IMG/VR virus record: IMGVR_UViG_2531839665_000023
From: a virus
Taxonomy: Duplodnaviria > Heunggongvirae > Uroviricota > Caudoviricetes
DNA length: 45,588 nt
Reading direction: 5' to 3' (one strand)
Below the pieces are notes generated by a model. It did not search any database, was not told the DNA's origin, and worked only from the letters and a program-made list of their open reading frames with translations. The translations under genes and the position numbers were made by a program. Below are positions 6,534 to 14,874 of this stretch, piece after piece (position 1 is the stretch's first letter; every line of letters starts with the position of its first letter).

Positions 6534-7208
6534 TTAGGCCTTTATTGTGTATCTTCTTGGTTTTCCCGAGAAAATCACTGTACCAATTATAGAGCAATTA
6601 CCGTTAATCTTAATGTAAGGCTCAGGCCAGTTTGGGTTTAATGCTTTGAGATAACGCTGTGTTCCATCTTCTATCAATCGCTTGAAGGTGGTTTCGCCTG
6701 TATCGTGCATCAATGCAATAACGTCGTCACCGTGGCAGGCAGGGACTTCGGGATCAACAAAAATCATGTCTCCAGGGCGGTACTCATCAATCATTGAATC
6801 ACCAATCACCCGCAAGATATAAGTCATTTCGCCACAGGGTACAGGGCAGGGATACGTTTCTGCTGTGCTCAAATCAACCTCAGAATAGCCAACTTCTTTC
6901 CATGCTCCGGCCTGTACCCATGATATGACAGGGACTAACGTTATTTGTTTGTTAGTGATTGAAACATCAGGTTTTTTTGTGATGTTCGTTGTCTGGTGTT
7001 CTTGATCAAGCCATCCGACAGGCAGGTCGAAACATTTTTCGATGTGCCGTGCCATGCTGTCACCGATATTTTTAGTAGCGCCATCCCCCATAAACCTGCT
7101 GGTTTGGGTTGGCTCGCGATCAATCATGGTGGCAAAGGATGAATTTCCGCCAACACCATCTCTCAGTTTTCTGGCGTTAGACCGCCGGATGTCATGGATT
7201 GTTTTCAT
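6534..7208 (-). CDS. cI: CI-type prophage repressor, HTH plus S24 LexA-like autopeptidase
   Basis: 224 aa; N-terminal HTH; QAGAW (Ala-Gly cleavage site), GDSM serine and downstream lysine (TFKRL). Confidence 0.9.
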   Translation of the reverse strand: MKTIHDIRRSNARKLRDGVGGNSSFATMIDREPTQTSRFMGDGATKNIGDSMARHIEKCFDLPVGWLDQEHQTTNITKKPDVSITNKQITLVPVISWVQAGAWKEVGYSEVDLSTAETYPCPVPCGEMTYILRVIGDSMIDEYRPGDMIFVDPEVPACHGDDVIALMHDTGETTFKRLIEDGTQRYLKALNPNWPEPYIKINGNCSIIGTVIFSGKPRRYTIKA

Positions 7209-7225
7209 AACGAAATTAAAACCTT

Positions 7226-7242
7226 TGTACCGATAAGGTACA
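7226..7242. promoter_or_regulatory. OR operator, 17-bp palindrome TGTACCGATAAGGTACA
   Basis: Between divergent cI and cro starts; overlaps predicted PRM -35. Confidence 0.55.
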
Positions 7243-7248
7243 AGTATC

Positions 7249-7276
7249 TTGAAGGTTCATTTCAATCATGTAATAT
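7249..7276 (+). promoter_or_regulatory. PR-like early-right promoter
   Basis: TTGAAG (7249-7254), 16-nt spacer, TAATAT (7271-7276), operator immediately downstream. Confidence 0.5.
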
Positions 7277-7292
7277 GTATACCGGAGGTACA
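7276..7292. promoter_or_regulatory. OR operator variant TGTATACCGGAGGTACA
   Basis: Shares GGTACA half-site; covers the predicted PR start site and the cro ribosome-binding site. Confidence 0.5.
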
Positions 7293-7298
7293 TATTGT

Positions 7299-7499
7299 AT
7301 GAAAGCGTATTGGGACTCTTTAACCAAAGAACAGCAGGGCGAGTTGGCCGGAAAAGTTGGCTCAACACCTGGCTACTTACGGCTGGTTTTCAATGGTTAT
7401 AAAAAAGCCAGTTTTGTGCTGGCGAAAAAACTTGAGCAATGCACGTCAGGTGCAATTACGAAATCTGACTTAAGACCGGATATCTATCCGAAAGATTAA
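7299..7499 (+). CDS. cro: Cro-like small HTH regulator
   Basis: 66 aa from the ATG preceded by GGAGGT; divergent from cI across the operator region. Confidence 0.75.
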   Translation: MKAYWDSLTKEQQGELAGKVGSTPGYLRLVFNGYKKASFVLAKKLEQCTSGAITKSDLRPDIYPKD

Positions 7500-7530
7500 C
7501 AGAACACCTTCAATTTTTAACCACAGAACG

Positions 7531-8094
7531 ATGAGGCTAACCGTGGGTAAGTATCACTGGAAAGTAGAAAAACAGCCTGAGTGGTACGTGAAAGCTGTCA
7601 GAAAAACTATCGCAGCGTTGCCGGGTGGTTACGCTGAAGCAGCTGACTGGCTGGATGTAACAGAGAACGCATTATTTAACCGCCTTCGTGCCGATGGCGA
7701 TCAGATTTTCCCGCTGGGATGGGCAATGGTTTTACAGCGTGCGGCTGGCACTCACTACATTGCGGATGCTGTCGCACAGTCTGCTGGTGGGGTGTTCGTA
7801 TCGCTTCCTGAAATTGAGGAAGTAGAGAACGCCGATATAAACCAGCGCCTGCTGGAAGTCATCGAACAGATCGGGAATTACTCAAAGCAGATTCGTTCGG
7901 CAATCGAAGATGGGGTCGTGGAGCCACACGAGCAGACAGCAATTAATGATGAGTTGTATCTGTCAATTTCGAAGCTCCAGGAGCATGCAGCACTGGTCTA
8001 CAAAATCTTTTGCGCTCCAGAAAAGAGTGACGCCCGCGAGTGTGCAGCTCCGGGCGTCGTGGCGTTTTGTGTCTGTGGAGAAACTAACGCATGA
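7531..8094 (+). CDS. Putative CII-like early regulatory protein
   Basis: 187 aa; position directly after cro; family assignment from memory only. Confidence 0.45.
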   Translation: MRLTVGKYHWKVEKQPEWYVKAVRKTIAALPGGYAEAADWLDVTENALFNRLRADGDQIFPLGWAMVLQRAAGTHYIADAVAQSAGGVFVSLPEIEEVENADINQRLLEVIEQIGNYSKQIRSAIEDGVVEPHEQTAINDELYLSISKLQEHAALVYKIFCAPEKSDARECAAPGVVAFCVCGETNA

Positions 8095-8927
8095 ACAGTT
8101 TAACGGCAAATAACCGTTTGTCGCAACAGCTGGTGGTCAGTGTCGCTGAACACCTGTTGTTACGGCATGAATGCAGATTACCAAATCACCTGGCTGTAAG
8201 TAACCACAGAGAACTTTACCTGACTGTGGGGGGCGAGTTGTGCGGGAACTTAACCGCTGGTTTCGTGACGGAAGAGGGCTTTATGTCCATGTTATTCGTT
8301 GGGAACCAGAAACACAGCGCGTTATCTATCTTCGCAAAGACTACCCGCATGAGTGCTTTAGTCCTTTGTGGAAATTCAGGCGTGATTTTGTTGAGTGTGA
8401 AGGACCACCAGCACATTGATTCTGCCATTCCGGGACGTTACACTGTTCAGGCACCTTATAAAGCGGGTGCCGGGATTGGCGTCCTGGAATTGATCAAGGC
8501 GATATATGACGCGCCAGCGTCTTTTTTATCGTCCGCATTTGCTCACATCAAAGTTATGGTGGGCTGGGCGGGGGCATCGAAAGATGCGCCGGTTTCCTTG
8601 ATCACCGGTTACGCCAACCCCGTTCAGTTCACCACCAGCGAAATTGGCGTTTCCGGTGGTGGAAGTATTTCACCGATCAAGGAGGCTGCCATCATGGCTA
8701 CTGTCCCAGCCCTCACTCGTCTGAATGATGAAGACTTACATAAACTCAGTTATGTAACAACTGCACTACGTGCTCTGCGCAAGGTAACTCTTTCGGATCC
8801 GCAGGCGCATCAGGTTCTGGTAGAAACCCTTCTTAACTTGCAGGCTGAACGTATCCGTTTGGTGGATAAGGCTAATTTTCATATTCACCGTCTCCTGAAT
8901 ATCAGCGGAGGGCATCGTCATGCTTAA
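8091..8927 (+). CDS. Hypothetical protein; ORF of doubtful extent
   Basis: Track ORF; N-terminal third is low-complexity and an alternative frame (8240-8419) reads more protein-like; C-terminal part more convincing. Confidence 0.35.
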   Translation: MNSLTANNRLSQQLVVSVAEHLLLRHECRLPNHLAVSNHRELYLTVGGELCGNLTAGFVTEEGFMSMLFVGNQKHSALSIFAKTTRMSALVLCGNSGVILLSVKDHQHIDSAIPGRYTVQAPYKAGAGIGVLELIKAIYDAPASFLSSAFAHIKVMVGWAGASKDAPVSLITGYANPVQFTTSEIGVSGGGSISPIKEAAIMATVPALTRLNDEDLHKLSYVTTALRALRKVTLSDPQAHQVLVETLLNLQAERIRLVDKANFHIHRLLNISGGHRHA

Positions 8928-9156
8928 TCCGTTGAGCCTCAATATTCGCCGTTTACTTCAGCGTAAAAAAACATCAATTCCTACAGTTGGGCAGTGGTAC
9001 ACCACGCCTGCAGGGCATGTTCTACGTGTTAGCCTGGTTGACCGTGAATGTCAGAAAGTGATTTGTGAACCGCTGGGCCGTAATTACCGCGTCAGTATGC
9101 CGCTTATAGCCTTTCGCTCCGGAAAAAACACGAAGCATCTCGGAGGTGCTGCATGA
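8920..9156 (+). CDS. Hypothetical small phage protein
   Basis: 78-aa ORF coupled to the downstream replication gene. Confidence 0.45.
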   Translation: MLNPLSLNIRRLLQRKKTSIPTVGQWYTTPAGHVLRVSLVDRECQKVICEPLGRNYRVSMPLIAFRSGKNTKHLGGAA

Positions 9157-9959
9157 GTATGGAGCTGATGGTTAAAGCGATGAAAATTCGAGTGGGAAAT
9201 CCATTGCGAAAACTGGTTCTGATTAAGCTGGCTGATAATGCCAGCGATCAGGGCGAGTGCTGGCCCAGCTATCAGCATATCGCTGATCAGTGCGAGATTA
9301 GCAAACGTTCTGTGATGAATCATATTGCGGCCCTCTGTGAGTCCGGGCTGGTAAAAAAAGTCACCAGGAAAGGTGAAAAAGGTAACTCAAGTAATATCTA
9401 TCTTCTTCATCTTGATGGTGCAGGAGATTCACTAGGGGGTAGTGCAAATAATTCACTATCTGGTGCAGCAAATTCACCAGGTAGTGCAGGAGTTGCACCA
9501 GGGGGTAGTGCAGGAGATTCACCCAGAACCAGTCACTCTTTTGAACCAGTCAATGAACCAATAGCTGTTGGTGCATCTGCTGATGAGTCTGTGCGAGTTC
9601 GTTCAAACCGACCGGAATACTCTCCGGAGTTTGAGCAGGCATGGCTGGCATATCCCAAACGTGCTGGTGGCAATTCAAAATCTGCAGCCTTCAAAGCCTG
9701 GAAAGCCCGTTTGAATGAGGGGGTAAAACCCGAAACCATGCTGGAAGGTGTGAAACGCTACGCGGGCTGGGTATCTGCGATGGGTAACAGCGGCACACAA
9801 TTTGTGAAACAGGCTGTCACGTTCTTTGGTCCGGATCGTCATTTCGAAGAATCCTGGGAAGTTCCTGCGGTATCTGCAGCCAGACGCGAGGACCCGTACT
9901 TCAAAGCCAGTTACGACAACGTGGACTACAGCCAGATCCCGGCAGGATTCAGGGGGTAA
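9153..9959 (+). CDS. Replication initiation protein, O-like, N-terminal winged HTH
   Basis: HTH segment (SYQHIADQCEISKRSVMNHIAAL), Gly/Ser-rich linker encoded by iteron-like repeats, C-terminal replication-protein-like region. Confidence 0.75.
   Translation: MSMELMVKAMKIRVGNPLRKLVLIKLADNASDQGECWPSYQHIADQCEISKRSVMNHIAALCESGLVKKVTRKGEKGNSSNIYLLHLDGAGDSLGGSANNSLSGAANSPGSAGVAPGGSAGDSPRTSHSFEPVNEPIAVGASADESVRVRSNRPEYSPEFEQAWLAYPKRAGGNSKSAAFKAWKARLNEGVKPETMLEGVKRYAGWVSAMGNSGTQFVKQAVTFFGPDRHFEESWEVPAVSAARREDPYFKASYDNVDYSQIPAGFRG
9418..9525 (+). repeat. Five imperfect ~21-bp direct repeats (iteron-like) inside the initiator gene; candidate origin
   Basis: GGTGCAGGAGATTCACTAGGG / GGTAGTGCAAATAATTCACT / GGTGCAGCAAATTCACCAGGT / AGTGCAGGAGTTGCACCAGGG / GGTAGTGCAGGAGATTCACCC, followed by GAACCAGTCA repeats. 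Confidence 0.6.
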
Positions 9960-9961
9960 TC

Positions 9962-10450
9962 ATGAGTCTTTTGAATGAAGTTCAGAAATTCATTGAAGCC
10001 CATCCGGGGTGTACTTCCGGAGACATTGCGGATGCTTTTGCTGGTTACTCACGGCAGCGCGTTCTGCAGTCAGCAAGCAAGTTACGTCAGAGTGGGCGTG
10101 TGGCTCACCGTTGTGAAGGGGATACACGCAGACATTTCCCGCGCCTGACTGAGAGAGCACAGGAGCCGGAACCACAACCAGTTCGTGAAACCAGACCTGT
10201 GCGCAATTTCTATGTCGGCACTAACGATCCCCGTGTGATTTTGTGCCTGACCCGCCAGGCTGAAGAACTAGAGTCCAGGGGCTTATACCGTCGTGCTGCA
10301 ACGGTGTGGATGGCGGCATTCCGTGAAAGCCACTCCCAGCCAGAACGAAACAATTTTCTGGCGCGTCGTGAGCAGTGTTTACGGAAAAGCAGCAAGCGCG
10401 CTGTATCGGGTGATGAGTGGTATCTGTCAGGGAATTACGTGGGGGGTTAA
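9962..10450 (+). CDS. Putative regulator with PerC-like C-terminal region
   Basis: 162 aa; C-terminal segment LESRGLYRRAATVWMAAFRE resembles the PerC/Pch family as recalled. Confidence 0.45.
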   Translation: MSLLNEVQKFIEAHPGCTSGDIADAFAGYSRQRVLQSASKLRQSGRVAHRCEGDTRRHFPRLTERAQEPEPQPVRETRPVRNFYVGTNDPRVILCLTRQAEELESRGLYRRAATVWMAAFRESHSQPERNNFLARREQCLRKSSKRAVSGDEWYLSGNYVGG

Positions 10451-10776
10451 TGACGACGTTAACTCAATGCCAGCAGCAGGTGCTGGATATGCTGATTTCT
10501 TATCAGAAAGAACGTGGTTTCCCGCCAACCAATCAGGAGGTGGCAGCCATGCTGGGATACCGTTCGGTGAATGCAGCGGTGGAGCATCTTCGCGCACTGG
10601 AGAAAAAAGGCGTCATCACGATAAAGCGTGGCGTGGCCCGGGGTATCACGCTTCATACCACAGTGAAGGACGACGACAGCGAGGCAGCCGGGATTATCCG
10701 CGCACTGCTTGCCGGTGAGGAAAACGCCAGGCTGCGTGCAACTCACTGGTTACATGAGAGGGGCCTGAAAGTATGA
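10450..10776 (+). CDS. LexA N-terminal DNA-binding-domain homologue lacking the S24 peptidase domain
   Basis: 108 aa from the ATG at 10450; LTQCQQQVLDMLISYQKERGFPPTNQEVAAMLGYRSVNAAVEHLRALEKKGVI aligns with the LexA winged-helix domain; no Ala-Gly/Ser/Lys cleavage module. Confidence 0.75.
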   Translation: MTTLTQCQQQVLDMLISYQKERGFPPTNQEVAAMLGYRSVNAAVEHLRALEKKGVITIKRGVARGITLHTTVKDDDSEAAGIIRALLAGEENARLRATHWLHERGLKV

Positions 10777-11162
10777 AGCTTATCCTGCCTTTCCCGCCCA
10801 GCGTGAACACTTACTGGCGACACCCTAACAAAGGGGCGTTTGCAGGTAAGAGCCTGATAAGCGCGGCGGGGCGAAAATTCCAGAGCGCGGCGTGCGCAGC
10901 AATAGTTGAGCAGTTACGTCGTCTGCCGAAACCAACGTCGGCACCTGCTTCAGTGGAGATCGTGTTGTTTCCTCCGGATAACAGGATCCGCGATCTGGAT
11001 AACTATAACAAGGCGCTGTTTGACGCCCTGACCCACGCAGGTGTGTGGGAAGACGACAGCCAGGTGAAAAGAATGCTGGTGGAGTGGGGACCGGTTATCC
11101 CGGAAGGGAAGGTCGAGATCACTATCAGTAAGTACGAGAAAACGGCGGGTGCAGCCGCCTGA
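10773..11162 (+). CDS. rusA: RusA Holliday-junction resolvase
   Basis: 129 aa; RDLDNYNKALFDALTHAGVWEDDSQV catalytic-region signature. Confidence 0.9.
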   Translation: MKLILPFPPSVNTYWRHPNKGAFAGKSLISAAGRKFQSAACAAIVEQLRRLPKPTSAPASVEIVLFPPDNRIRDLDNYNKALFDALTHAGVWEDDSQVKRMLVEWGPVIPEGKVEITISKYEKTAGAAA

Positions 11163-11181
11163 TTAAGAGGAGAAACGAAGT

Positions 11182-11868
11182 ATGAATAATCTGATGGTCA
11201 TTGATGGTATTGAAGTTCGTCGTGATGCTTATGGACGTTACAGCCTGAACGATCTGCATCGTGCCGCAGTAGCATCTGGTGCAAATGCCAGAACGAAGGA
11301 GCCGGGAAAGTTTCTTTCCAGCCAACAGACTGTTGAACTTGTTCGGGAATTGACCGATACCCAAAATTTGGGTGTCGGTCCGGTTAATACAGTTCGTGGT
11401 GGTCCTAAGCAGGGGAGTTATGTCTGCAAGGAACTGGTGTATGCCTATGCAATGTGGATCAGTCCGTCATTCCATCTGAAGGTGATCCGTACTTTCGATA
11501 TGGTAGTCAGTGCACCGGAAAAATTATCCGGGCAGGCTGCTGACAAGATGCAGGCAGGTGTGATTCTGCTGGACTTTATGCGTCGGGAGTTAAACCTGTC
11601 TAACTCATCTGTGCTTGGGGCCTGTCAGAAACTCCAGGAGGCTGTTGGCTTACCGAATCTGGCACCGCGCTATGCCATTGATGCTCCTGCTGATGCACAC
11701 GATGGCTCAAGTCGCCCCACGCTGTCGCTGAGTGCACTGCTGAGGCAGTATGGTATCCGCCTGACGGCTAATCAGGCATATCACCAGATGGTGAAGCTGG
11801 GGATCGTTGAACAACGCGAACGATACAGCCGTACCGCGATTAACAACATCAAAAATTCTGGTCGCTGA
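11182..11868 (+). CDS. KilA-N domain protein (antirepressor-like)
   Basis: N-terminal KilA-N-type sequence (YSLNDLHRA...VYAYAMWISPSFHLKVI). Confidence 0.75.
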   Translation: MNNLMVIDGIEVRRDAYGRYSLNDLHRAAVASGANARTKEPGKFLSSQQTVELVRELTDTQNLGVGPVNTVRGGPKQGSYVCKELVYAYAMWISPSFHLKVIRTFDMVVSAPEKLSGQAADKMQAGVILLDFMRRELNLSNSSVLGACQKLQEAVGLPNLAPRYAIDAPADAHDGSSRPTLSLSALLRQYGIRLTANQAYHQMVKLGIVEQRERYSRTAINNIKNSGR

Positions 11869-11991
11869 CGGCGAAAGGCTGCATGTTCGGCAAGAACATC
11901 ACCAGTCCTGCAAATCCGCGCGAGACGCAGCCGCATTTCTTCGAATCCCGATTCCCTGAGCTGTTAAAGCTGCTCGATACCGTTCATTGAG

Positions 11992-12987
11992 GTGACCGTG
12001 AGAGCACTACTGACCCCTGAAATTGCCCCGCGTATGGGGATCGTATTGTTCAGGCCAGGTTCAGAGCTGATGCCCCTGTTTATGCAGGGGCGTGTCCTGC
12101 TGGAGCCTGAGCCGGAACGTTATTCATCTTTCGCCAGTGGTGCCGTTCCGGCGGCATCACAACCGCTGGCGGATGATCCTGCCGTTCGGGCCGTGTTCCG
12201 CAATGAGGCAGTGATCCGTCGTGCTGGTGGCGTGGAATGCCTTGAAAGCTGGTTACTTCGTGAAAAGGGCTGTCAGTGGCCTCATTCCGACTGGCACAGC
12301 GAGAACATGACCACAATGCGACACGCGCCGGGCGCAATCCGTCTGTGCTGGCACTGCGATAACCAGCTGCGTGATCAGTTCACGGAACGGCTGGAGTCAA
12401 TGGCAACGGATAACTGTGCCCGCTGGGTGTTGTCTGTCGTGCGTCGGGATCTCGGTTTTGATGACAGTCACGTTGTGACAATGCCGGAACTGTGCTGGTG
12501 GCTGGTTCGTAATGATTTGGCGGATGCCTTACCGGAAAGTGCAGCCCGTAAGGCACTGAGATTACCGAAGCCTGTTGTGCCATCTGTCACCCGGGAAAGT
12601 GACCTTGTGCCTTCGGTTCCTGCCACCAGCATCATCCAGGATAAAGCGAAAAAGGTGCTGGTGCTGAAAGTGGATCCGGAGTCGCCGGAGTCTTTTATGT
12701 TACGCCCCAAACGTCGCCGCTGGGTTAATGAAAAGTACACGCGCTGGGTTAAGACGCAGCCGTGCGCATGTTGTGGAAAGCCAGCTGATGATCCCCACCA
12801 CCTGATAGGCCACGGTCAGGGTGGAATGGGTACAAAAGCGCATGATCTCTTTGTGTTGCCTTTGTGCAGAAAGCATCACGACGAGCTGCATGCGGATACC
12901 GTGACATTTGAAGAGAAGTATGGCTCCCAACTGGAGCTGATATTTCGTTTTATCGATCGTGCGCTGGCAATTGGCGTACTGGCGTAA
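11992..12987 (+). CDS. DUF968-family nin-region protein
   Basis: C-terminal Cys/His cluster (CACCGKPADDPHHL...CRKHHDELH); GTG start per track. Confidence 0.7.
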   Translation: MTVRALLTPEIAPRMGIVLFRPGSELMPLFMQGRVLLEPEPERYSSFASGAVPAASQPLADDPAVRAVFRNEAVIRRAGGVECLESWLLREKGCQWPHSDWHSENMTTMRHAPGAIRLCWHCDNQLRDQFTERLESMATDNCARWVLSVVRRDLGFDDSHVVTMPELCWWLVRNDLADALPESAARKALRLPKPVVPSVTRESDLVPSVPATSIIQDKAKKVLVLKVDPESPESFMLRPKRRRWVNEKYTRWVKTQPCACCGKPADDPHHLIGHGQGGMGTKAHDLFVLPLCRKHHDELHADTVTFEEKYGSQLELIFRFIDRALAIGVLA

Positions 12988-13000
12988 GTGGAGAACGAGC

Positions 13001-13753
13001 ATGAACCTTGAAGCCTTACCAAAATATTACTCCCCAAAATCTCCAAAATTGAGTGATGCCGCACCGGCGACAGGCTCAGGTGGTTTAACGATTACGGATG
13101 TGATGGCTGCGCAGGGGATGGTGCAGTCGAAAGCACCGCTTGGGTTTGCCTTATTCCTGGCAAAAGCTGGCGTTCAGGATCCTCAGTTTGCGATTGAAGG
13201 TCTGCTCAATTACGCGATGGCACTGGATAACCCGACATTGAACAAATTGAGTGAAGAAATCCGGTTACAGATCATCCCTTACCTTGTGAGTTTTGCCTTT
13301 GCTGATTATTCCAGGTCTGCGGCAAGTAAGGCTCGCTGTGAGCCTTGTGCTGGTACTGGATTTCATAATGTATTGCGCGAAGTGGTGAAATACTCCAGAA
13401 GCGGGGAGTCTGTTATCAAGGAAGAGTGGGTGAAGGAACTATGTCAGCATTGTCATGGTAAGGGAGAAGTCAGCACAGCGTGCAGAGGGTGTAAGGGTAA
13501 AGGTATTGTCCTGGATGAAAAAAGGACCCGGCTTCATGGCGCGCCTGTTTATAAGATTTGTGGGCGTTGCAATGGAAACCGGTTTAGTCGTTTACCAACG
13601 ACACTGGCGCGGTGTCATGTCCAGAAGCTGGTACCAGACCTGACTGATTATCAGTGGTACAAAGGATATGCAGATGTCATTGATAAACTGGTTACAAAGT
13701 GCTGGCAGGAAGAAGCATATGCTGAGGTGCAATTAAGAAAAGTGACGAGATAA
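13001..13753 (+). CDS. Q-like late-gene antiterminator
   Basis: Multiple CxxC pairs (CEPCAGTG, CQHCHGKG, CRGCKGKG, CGRCNGNR); last nin-region gene before the lysis region; start at ATG with GGAG upstream. Confidence 0.6.
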   Translation: MNLEALPKYYSPKSPKLSDAAPATGSGGLTITDVMAAQGMVQSKAPLGFALFLAKAGVQDPQFAIEGLLNYAMALDNPTLNKLSEEIRLQIIPYLVSFAFADYSRSAASKARCEPCAGTGFHNVLREVVKYSRSGESVIKEEWVKELCQHCHGKGEVSTACRGCKGKGIVLDEKRTRLHGAPVYKICGRCNGNRFSRLPTTLARCHVQKLVPDLTDYQWYKGYADVIDKLVTKCWQEEAYAEVQLRKVTR

Positions 13754-13817: not shown

Positions 13818-14874
13818 GGCTTTGTTGAATAAATCGAACTTTTGCTGAGTTGAAGGATCAGATCACGCATCTTCCCGACAACGCAGACCGTTCCGTGGCA
13901 AAGCAAAAGTTCAAAATCACCAACTGGCCCACCTACAATAAAGCCCTCATCAACCGTGGCTCCATAACTTTCTGGCTGGATGATGAAGCTATTCAGGCCT
14001 GGTATGAGTCAGCAACACCTTCTTCACGAGGCAGACCTCAGCGCTATTCTGACCTTGCCATCACGACTGTGCTGGTCATTAAACGCGTATTCAGGCTGAC
14101 CCTGCGCGCTGCGCAGGGCTTTATTGATTCCATTTTTTCTCTGATGAACGTTCCGCTACGCTGCCCGGATTACAGCTGTGTCAGCAGGCGGGCAAAGTCG
14201 GTTAATGTCAGTTTCAAAACGTCCACCCGGGGTGAAATCGCACACCTGGTAATTGATTCCACCGGGCTGAAGGTCTTCGGTGAAGGCGAGTGGAAAGTCA
14301 AAAAGCATGGCCAGGAACGCCGCCGTATCTGGCGTAAGCTGCATCTCGCCGTTGACAGTAAAACACATGAAATCATCTGCGCTGACCTGTCGCTGAACAA
14401 TGTTACGGACTCAGAGGCCTTCCCCGGGTTAATCCGGCAAACCCACCGGAAAATCAGGTCAGCCGCCGCCGATGGCGCTTACGATACCCGGCTATGTCAC
14501 GATGAACTGCGGCGTAAGAAAATCAGCGCGCTTATCCCTCCCCGAAAAGGTGCGGGTTACTGGCCCGGTGAATATGCAGACCGTAACCGTGCAGTGGCTA
14601 ATCAGCGAATGACCGGGAGTAATGCGCGGTGGAAATGGACAACAGATTACAACCGTCGCTCGATAGCGGAAACGGCGATGTACCGGGTAAAACAGCTGTT
14701 CGGGGGTTCACTGACGCTGCGTGACTACGATGGTCAGGTTGCGGAGGCTATGGCCCTGGTACGAGCGCTGAACAAAATGACGAAAGCAGGTATGCCTGAA
14801 AGCGTGCGTATTGCCTGAAAACACAACCCGCTACGGGGGAGACTTACCCGAAATCTGATTTATTCAACAAAGCC
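13818..14874 (+). mobile_element. IS903 (IS5 family) insertion sequence, intact
   Basis: 1057 bp; 18-bp terminal inverted repeats GGCTTTGTTGAATAAATC at both ends; single transposase ORF; flanked by 9-bp direct repeats. Confidence 0.93.
13850..14818 (+). CDS. IS903 transposase (DDE, IS5 family)
   Basis: 322-aa track ORF entirely within the IS; sequence character matches IS903 transposase as recalled. Confidence 0.9.
   Translation: MKDQITHLPDNADRSVAKQKFKITNWPTYNKALINRGSITFWLDDEAIQAWYESATPSSRGRPQRYSDLAITTVLVIKRVFRLTLRAAQGFIDSIFSLMNVPLRCPDYSCVSRRAKSVNVSFKTSTRGEIAHLVIDSTGLKVFGEGEWKVKKHGQERRRIWRKLHLAVDSKTHEIICADLSLNNVTDSEAFPGLIRQTHRKIRSAAADGAYDTRLCHDELRRKKISALIPPRKGAGYWPGEYADRNRAVANQRMTGSNARWKWTTDYNRRSIAETAMYRVKQLFGGSLTLRDYDGQVAEAMALVRALNKMTKAGMPESVRIA

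Follow-up and report, generated by a model that had tools for sequence, protein, structure and literature searches.

The window analysed here, i.e., the whole stretch of 45,588 nucleotides of the viral record IMGVR_UViG_2531839665_000023 (Caudoviricetes), represents an mEp460/2H10-like lambdoid element, with 97.9% identity across 73% of its first 25 kb. Its early-right region runs from an S24 repressor to a Q antiterminator, and the gene under study lies between a replication initiator and a small LexA-like gene (Table 1). Reading of the window sequence matched the exact coordinates 9962-10450 on the plus strand to an ATG-initiated ORF of 162 codons, and this ORF is real. The TAA of the upstream initiator (9957-9959) leaves a gap of 2 nt before the ATG, and the Arg-Gly codons of the C-terminal GFRG of the initiator double as the Shine-Dalgarno sequence AGGGGG of the yfdN-like gene, as is the case at 7 other loci. 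At the opposite end, the TAA (10448-10450) and the ATG of the next gene have 1 base in common. Full-length homologues with 66-99% identity were found in Escherichia, Salmonella, Citrobacter and Hafnia, and the protein is clearly under purifying selection.

No sigma-70-like promoter sites were detected on the plus strand from the immunity region to position 11163. This result, together with the tight gene junctions, places yfdN on the repressor-controlled early-right transcript. The early-right location given in the preliminary description was correct, as judged by the order of genes from the S24 repressor to the Q antiterminator. From its membership of this operon, YfdN would be synthesised when the phage infects or a prophage is induced, and it is not expected in a quiescent, stable lysogen.

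Table 1. Genes and sequence features of the early-right region surrounding the yfdN-like gene
Feature	Position	Strand	Remarks
S24 repressor	6534-7208	-	
cro-like gene	between S24 repressor and CII/CP76-like gene		
CII/CP76-like protein	7531-8094		
Ash-like protein	8091-8927		
Small ORF	between Ash-like gene and replication initiator		78 aa
Replication initiator	9153..9959	+	HTH_36 and DnaD_N-like; PHROG 270 'replication initiation protein'; ends IPAGFRG
Five 15-bp iterons GTGCARNARNTKCAC	9418..9522	+	spacing 21-24 bp; inside initiator gene
Shine-Dalgarno-like AGGGGG	9951..9956	+	5 nt ahead of the yfdN-like ATG; read from sequence
yfdN-like CDS	9962..10450	+	162 aa; PerC family transcriptional regulator / PHROG 1324
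Predicted winged helix-turn-helix domain	9968..10141	+	aa 3-60; AlphaFold2 model, Foldseek
Variable Pro/Glu-rich linker	10142..10228	+	aa 61-89; predicted disordered; AlphaFold2, alignments
PerC/ANR-type three-helix core	10229..10402	+	aa 90-147; Pfam, AlphaFold2, alignment
Conserved C-terminal tail motif WYLSGNYVG	10418..10444	+	alignments; predicted disordered
LexA-like protein	10450..10776	+	108 aa; LexA DNA-binding domain, no S24 peptidase domain; ATG overlaps yfdN stop
RusA, KilA-N protein, DUF968/HNH	in that order between LexA-like gene and Q		
Q antiterminator	12959-13753		

The gene encodes YfdN, a protein of lambdoid phages that belongs to the PerC superfamily and is built of two domains. 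It shows 96% identity to YfdN of E. coli K-12 (b2357), which is encoded within the cryptic prophage CPS-53/KpLE1, and PHROG 1324 ('transcriptional activator') matches it along aa 1-162 (E = 3e-78). The RefSeq entry WP_000055028.1 corresponds to the YfdN subfamily; proteins 100% identical to that of the window are named PerC family transcriptional regulator, as are, overwhelmingly, the homologues present in the databases, and the RefSeq label for b2357 in K-12 is 'uncharacterized protein YfdN'. Nine complete E. coli genomes carry annotated genes with 100% DNA identity, with five of these nine copies named 'yfdN: PerC family transcriptional regulator' and the other four carrying the same product name and no gene name. 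Of 5426 complete E. coli genomes, 2668 (~49%) contain similar DNA, mostly at 95-99% identity, and the carriers include K-12 and commensal isolates. Phages with copies at 95-99% identity include mEp460 (gp44), SfV (orf40), SfII, SfIV, 2H10, Ayreon and many Stx2c-converting phages, and the Sb43 protein of Salmonella phage ST64B has 68% identity to the window protein.

The assignment of this gene to the PerC family is already known from public annotation and from the literature, in which yfdN has been termed 'the K12 unique PerC homologue' (PMC5931665). Uhlich et al. deleted yfdN as a precaution ahead of testing Pch proteins on ler::lacZ in K-12 (PMC5931665), and no direct functional test of YfdN was found in the literature. 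Other mentions of yfdN come from a cell-division screen, an ASKA over-expression glycogen screen and a predicted interactome, all of them without a mechanism. Since the gene is the well-known and already annotated yfdN of about half of E. coli genomes, its occurrence in the window is an ordinary finding; the architecture, the ANR link, the initiator linkage and the natural deletion described below are modest refinements and hypotheses.

To describe the architecture, we relied on an AlphaFold2 model of the whole protein that was based on 18 homologues (mean pLDDT 75.7). The N-terminal domain was modeled with helices at residues 3-13, 19-25 and 31-44, followed by a β-hairpin at 47-52/55-60, with pLDDT values of ~79-91; this predicted α1-α2-α3-β-β fold of aa 3-60 would be superposable on known winged-helix regulators. 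Foldseek comparison of the domain with the PDB matched SmtB/ArsR, MarR, SlyA, MepR, BlaI/MecI, SqrR and DsrD at rmsd values of ~1.5-3 Å over ~60 residues and with probability 1.00, the whole-chain E-values being weak. At the level of sequence, the N-domain had weak matches to a MarR-type PHROG (8e-5) and to BilQ (0.003-0.001), a Pfam search with the N-domain alone gave no match, and a PDB sequence search with the window protein gave no match at E ≤ 10. Scattered YfdN-like relatives match MarR_2, HTH_24, Penicillinase_R, PaaX and DsrD, and one of the relatives (P0184), with 214 aa, contains two winged helices in addition to PerC, with MarR_2 above its cut-off. The linker that follows, with a predicted disordered stretch of ~25 residues, falls below pLDDT 50 at aa 63-84, and in the alignments of both close and distant homologues no other part is as poorly conserved or as rich in indels.

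The C-terminal half of the protein had been likened in the preliminary description to PerC/Pch-type activators, with a profile search proposed as a check, and this resemblance was borne out. The Pfam profile PF06069 (PerC) matches aa 98-151 (nt 10253-10414) with 38.9 bits and E = 1e-9, its gathering cut-off being 22.6 bits, and the PerC profile is also matched by 23 of 23 diverse two-domain YfdN-like relatives. BLASTP comparison revealed 32% identity over 56 aa to PerC of EPEC E2348/69 pMAR2 (E = 2e-7) and 40% identity over 52 aa to PchE of O157 Sakai (E = 2e-10), which served as reference sequences. In a joint alignment of YfdN-like proteins, short PerC-like proteins, PerC and PchE, the residues A100, L103, G107, R111, A112 and C139 are invariant, and A113, R129 and R136 are nearly invariant in the alignment that includes EPEC PerC and Sakai PchE. 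AlphaFold2 placed the core helices at 90-105, 109-122 and 126-147 with pLDDT of ~90. A separate model of the C-domain, for which PerC and PchE were left out of the alignment, again predicted a three-helix unit (pLDDT 81, pTM 0.62). Foldseek with the C-domain alone returned TPR/MIT-like three-helix matches only, of which none was significant (best E = 0.4), so this comparison gave no functional lead beyond that of a helical protein-interaction-type module.

The label PerC/Pch-type held for the core and not for the protein as a whole, as YfdN is not a plain PerC. The window protein covers only positions 5-58 of the 90 positions of PF06069, with the C-terminal third missing, while EPEC PerC and PchE cover positions 1-89/90 at 143-153 bits. 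A winged helix and a linker precede the core, and a tail of its own, specific to the family, replaces the last third of PerC. The family consensus of this tail is W/C-x-L-[AS]-G-x-[YF]-x-G, which is absent from PerC and PchE, and aa 147-162 have pLDDT <50. When 1.84 billion representative proteins were searched exhaustively, 104 relatives were recovered. The layout of winged helix, variable linker, PerC core and tail is kept down to 25% identity, as seen in an alignment of 22 distant relatives. A candidate relative that appeared to contain six PerC-like stretches (P0198) was discarded as a low-complexity protein with many spurious matches.

The core was also compared with the ANR (AraC negative regulator) family, represented by the NCBIfam model NF033650, which has a length of 54 positions and a curated cut-off of 32 bits. 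The whole window protein scored 22.5 bits and the C-domain alone 24.3 bits (E = 2e-5); EPEC PerC and PchE, likewise sub-threshold, scored 18.2 and 17.9 bits, respectively. Sub-threshold matches were obtained for 14 of 23 diverse YfdN-like proteins (best E = 6e-9), and these matches span the whole model. The ANR signature residues A10, E14, A22, W26 and A29 (PMC4983702) would, in our own reading of the sequences, align by their spacing with A100, E104, A112, W116 and A119 of the window protein. Members of the ANR family have three helices and a mass of less than 10 kDa, are encoded with AraC/XylS partners (PMC4983702), and bind AraC-type activators as well as the H-NS-family proteins H-NS and Ler (PMC4983702, PMC10148876). 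YfdN falls outside the ANR family proper by score, by size (162 aa) and by genomic partner; no AraC-family gene is located among the neighbours of the yfdN-like gene. Taken together with the published work on PchA (see below), the comparison suggests that the PerC core works as a compact helical module whose targets are nucleoid-associated or regulator complexes.

Comparison of gene order, which covered the window and 8 further loci or phages, revealed a YfdN-like gene directly 3' of an O-like/DnaD-like initiator at every locus examined. The loci compared for synteny were E. coli A3, SfV, ST64B, mEp460 and five metagenomic or genomic loci with 25-47% YfdN identity. The junctions between initiator and yfdN consist of ATGA overlaps or 2-nt gaps, and in the window the two genes are translationally coupled. 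The gene located 3' of yfdN varies, and encodes Dam, MT-A70, MethyltransfD12 or a LexA-like protein. Initiators with unrelated bodies have the same last 24-31 residues, ending in IPxGFRG, ahead of yfdN. We considered this ending as a docking peptide specific to YfdN; EIPPGFRG was also found on Rac-type O proteins before DnaC (PhiR5_2) and before LygF (813R8), and the idea was dropped for this reason and because the Arg-Gly codons simply constitute the Shine-Dalgarno sequence of whatever gene follows. The iterons inside the initiator gene amount to 5 matches against 0.53 expected, all of them in this one cluster, ~450 bp upstream of yfdN, and the cluster is likely to be the origin, arranged as in lambda.

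In lambda, the slot 3' of the O-like initiator is occupied by P, a helicase loader. No helicase or loader was detectable in the early regions of the window, and the complete genome of the isolated phage mEp460 has none annotated. Sister modules fill the position behind a related initiator with a DnaC-like loader (PhiR5_2) or with DnaC together with DnaB (phiP27). YfdN has no similarity to loader families in Pfam, PHROG, NCBIfam or Foldseek. Phage cdtI contains the same module and initiator with an in-frame deletion of yfdN, by which aa 27-158 were lost, and its YfdN remnant of 30 aa consists of MSLLNEVQKFIEAHPGCTSGDIADAF joined directly to YVGD. The title of the publication on this phage refers to 'an inducible lambdoid prophage' (Asakura et al. 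2007, PMC1964815). Furthermore, the yfdN copy of an Stx2a phage is interrupted by an IS. Based on the natural deletion in phage cdtI, inducible according to that title, yfdN is dispensable in at least one natural phage and is probably accessory. The idea that YfdN is the missing helicase loader was down-weighted on account of this deletion and of the IS-interrupted Stx2a copy.

Several explanations of the function of YfdN have to be weighed against a role in early gene regulation. The suggestion, made in the preliminary description, of a prophage protein controlling host virulence loci would mean that YfdN cross-activates chromosomal loci such as LEE in the manner of PchA/B/C, for which we found no support, and we regard it as very improbable. 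The PerC core is common to YfdN, PchA/B/C and PerC, and Uhlich et al. judged the deletion of yfdN prudent before ler::lacZ was measured. However, among the characterised paralogues ler is appreciably activated only by the group 1 proteins PchA/B/C, the effects of PchD and PchE being minimal (PMC5931665, PMC6265319), with less than 2-fold activation by PchE and none by PchD (PMC5931665). PerC and PchA/B/C are the only proteins for which ler activation has been demonstrated. YfdN is devoid of the C-terminal third of the PerC profile, its gene is inside a repressed early-right operon, and no LEE or other YfdN target is known. Since roughly one in two complete E. coli genomes carries yfdN, K-12 and commensals included, the distribution of the gene does not follow a single pathotype. 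It is unlikely, although less remote, that YfdN acts as an ANR-type anti-activator, which would inactivate an AraC-family or H-NS-family factor of the host or phage through its three-helix core. Such a role would fit the ANR profile, on which the window C-domain outscores both PerC and PchE and 14 of 23 relatives match, the A-E-A-W-A residues that we align with the published signature, and a predicted TPR/MIT-like fold of a type typical of peptide-binding modules. In addition, PchE, a PerC paralogue outside group 1, acts mainly as a repressor of csgD/curli (PMC6265319), and it stimulates flagella when over-expressed. Nevertheless, every ANR score is below the cut-off, whereas the PerC score is above its own, and ANR proteins are small (<10 kDa), single-domain and accompanied by AraC-family partners, while YfdN has 162 aa with a DNA-binding-type domain and no AraC-family gene nearby.

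The conserved location of yfdN leads to a further explanation, in which YfdN is not a gene regulator and instead forms an accessory part of the replication module, placed in the loader slot and working with the initiator at the iteron origin, for example through recruitment of host DnaB-DnaC or through an opening or de-silencing of the origin region. The location directly after the initiator in 8 independent loci (25-97% YfdN identity) with a varying 3' gene argues for this explanation, as do the last 24-31 residues shared by otherwise unrelated initiators and the five iterons ~450 bp upstream. It is also consistent with the DnaC-like loader that follows a related EIPPGFRG-ending initiator in PhiR5_2, with DnaC and DnaB in phiP27, and with the failure to detect a helicase or loader in the early regions of the window or in the mEp460 genome. 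Against it, phage cdtI, inducible according to its title, keeps the initiator and yet has lost aa 27-158 of YfdN, an IS interrupts the gene in an Stx2a phage, and the IPxGFRG ending also occurs on initiators that are not partners of YfdN; for these reasons the replication role was kept as a minority explanation, and we consider it quite unlikely. Moreover, YfdN resembles lambda P, DnaC and DnaD-type loaders neither in sequence nor in fold, and mosaic lambdoid phages can conserve gene order without functional coupling. A broader form of the same explanation, to which we give an equally small chance, is that YfdN-type proteins are origin-proximal partners of a widespread phage initiator family and not virulence-style activators. 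The winged helix may then tether a PerC/ANR-type module near the iterons, where it may clear H-NS-type nucleoprotein or help to recruit the host helicase, and clearance of H-NS may represent a protein-based form of 'transcriptional activation of ori'. If this were true, PerC and ANR would constitute one superfamily of small three-helix modules targeting nucleoid-associated proteins.

On balance, we lean somewhat towards YfdN as an accessory early regulator that modulates how phage DNA, and possibly host DNA silenced by H-NS, is transcribed, and not as an essential lytic function. For such a regulator, the winged helix, with its predicted binding, would tether YfdN to specific DNA, and the PerC core would then remodel a nucleoprotein or regulator complex at the tethered site. 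The core step may be modeled on PchA and its relief of H-NS/StpA/Hha silencing at LEE1; activation by PchA is wholly dependent on this silencing, H-NS binding at LEE1 is reduced, and H-NS was not co-precipitated with PchA by Fukui et al. (PMC4764244). Alternatively, the core may act in the way that ANR proteins bind H-NS-family and AraC-family regulators. It is possible that the conserved disordered tail serves as a short docking motif. A purely transcriptional role leaves the strictly conserved place beside the replication initiator unexplained. YfdN is among the commonest prophage genes of E. coli (~49% of complete genomes); if it acts on H-NS-silenced DNA at induction, it could link SOS induction to the expression of silenced host or phage genes in many strains.

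With respect to known systems, the window protein belongs to the same full-length family as K-12 YfdN, SfV orf40, mEp460 gp44 and ST64B Sb43, all of which occupy the same slot after the replication initiator; its identity to the SfV and mEp460 proteins is 96-99%, and it does not differ from these orthologues in any material way. In SfV and mEp460 a Dam methylase gene lies 3' of yfdN, whereas it is absent from the window, and the LexA-like gene therefore adjoins yfdN directly. With lambda P and the DnaC-like loaders of PhiR5_2 and phiP27, YfdN has only its position in common. The ANR proteins Aar, Rnr and Cnr are comparable to the YfdN core in their predicted three-helix module, similar length and several signature residues; in contrast to YfdN, they are without a DNA-binding domain, are tied to AraC-family regulators and function as anti-activators. 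PerC and PchE are single-domain proteins of ~90 aa, in line with the ~90-105 aa taken as typical of the family, while YfdN, with 162 aa, contains an additional winged helix and linker as well as a different tail. Their genes are also located differently, with PerC encoded in the perABC plasmid operon (EPEC EAF plasmid) and PchE encoded by Sp7, an untypable prophage with genes for primase and SSB and with P4-like features. Nevertheless, PerC, the Pch proteins and YfdN are all encoded on mobile elements, and they share the core A-x2-L-E-x2-G-x-[YFW]-R-R-A-A-x2-W...R...R-x2-C, with 32-40% identity over ~55 residues.

The C-terminal domain of YfdN, the 162-aa PerC-family protein, was compared with the NCBIfam profile for the AraC negative regulators (ANR). 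PerC, PchE and the YfdN C-domain each gave sub-threshold matches along the full length of this profile, and 14 of 23 YfdN-like proteins matched it likewise sub-threshold, with a best E-value of 6e-9. These matches suggest that PerC and ANR constitute one superfamily; no statement to this effect was found in the PerC and ANR literature examined.

The N-domain of YfdN (aa 3-67) has a weak match (E=0.01) to PHROG 142, 'Ren-like exclusion protein'. The lambda ren gene occupies a comparable location, just after the replication genes. A distant YfdN relative of 214 aa, P0184, carries two winged helices, HTH_24 and MarR_2, preceding a PerC core, an independent variation on the joining of a winged helix to PerC.

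The replication initiator directly upstream of yfdN ends in IPxGFRG, a C-terminus common to O-like/DnaD-like initiators with otherwise unrelated bodies, found in the window and in eight of the compared loci. The mosaic junction falls within the initiator gene, at its 3' end; the Arg-Gly codons of the IPxGFRG end serve as the Shine-Dalgarno sequence for the gene that follows, whose product may be YfdN, DnaC or LygF. In phage cdtI, a natural in-frame deletion has reduced yfdN to a 30-codon remnant, and the annotated dam CDS begins within this remnant in a different frame. In many phages of this kind, the gene encoding only a LexA DNA-binding domain is conserved, with yfdN or dam on one side and rusA on the other. 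Further downstream, an IS element inserted after the Q gene could disturb late-gene expression.

Coordinates of the features discussed (window unless another record is named)
Feature	Coordinates	Details
Iterons GTGCARNARNTKCAC	9418-9522	five, 15 bp; spacing 21-24 bp; within replication-initiator gene
IPxGFRG terminus	9936-9959	also L005, L008, L009, L011, L013, L014, L015, L016
YfdN N-domain	9962-10162	
ANR-profile matches	10214-10447; L004:18487-18753; L003:7188-7457	profile search; YfdN aa 85-162; the other two records are the PerC and PchE references
LexA DNA-binding domain only	10450-10776	108 aa; no S24 peptidase domain; PHROG 362 'transcriptional repressor'
ORF with DDE_Tnp_1_5 + DDE_Tnp_1 (DDE transposase domains)	13850-14818	~100 bp past Q antiterminator gene (12959-13753)
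yfdN remnant, phage cdtI	L020 3501-3593	= NC_009514 38370-38462

Across the whole window, five iterons were observed versus 0.53 expected by chance, and their cluster is probably the phage origin of replication, laid out like lambda ori. An initiator is present in the replication modules of both the window and mEp460; however, no recognisable helicase or helicase loader was detected in the early regions of the window (6534-13753) or in the whole mEp460 genome, even though mEp460 is an isolated phage. In the sister modules of PhiR5_2 and phiP27, the initiator is followed by DnaC, with or without DnaB.
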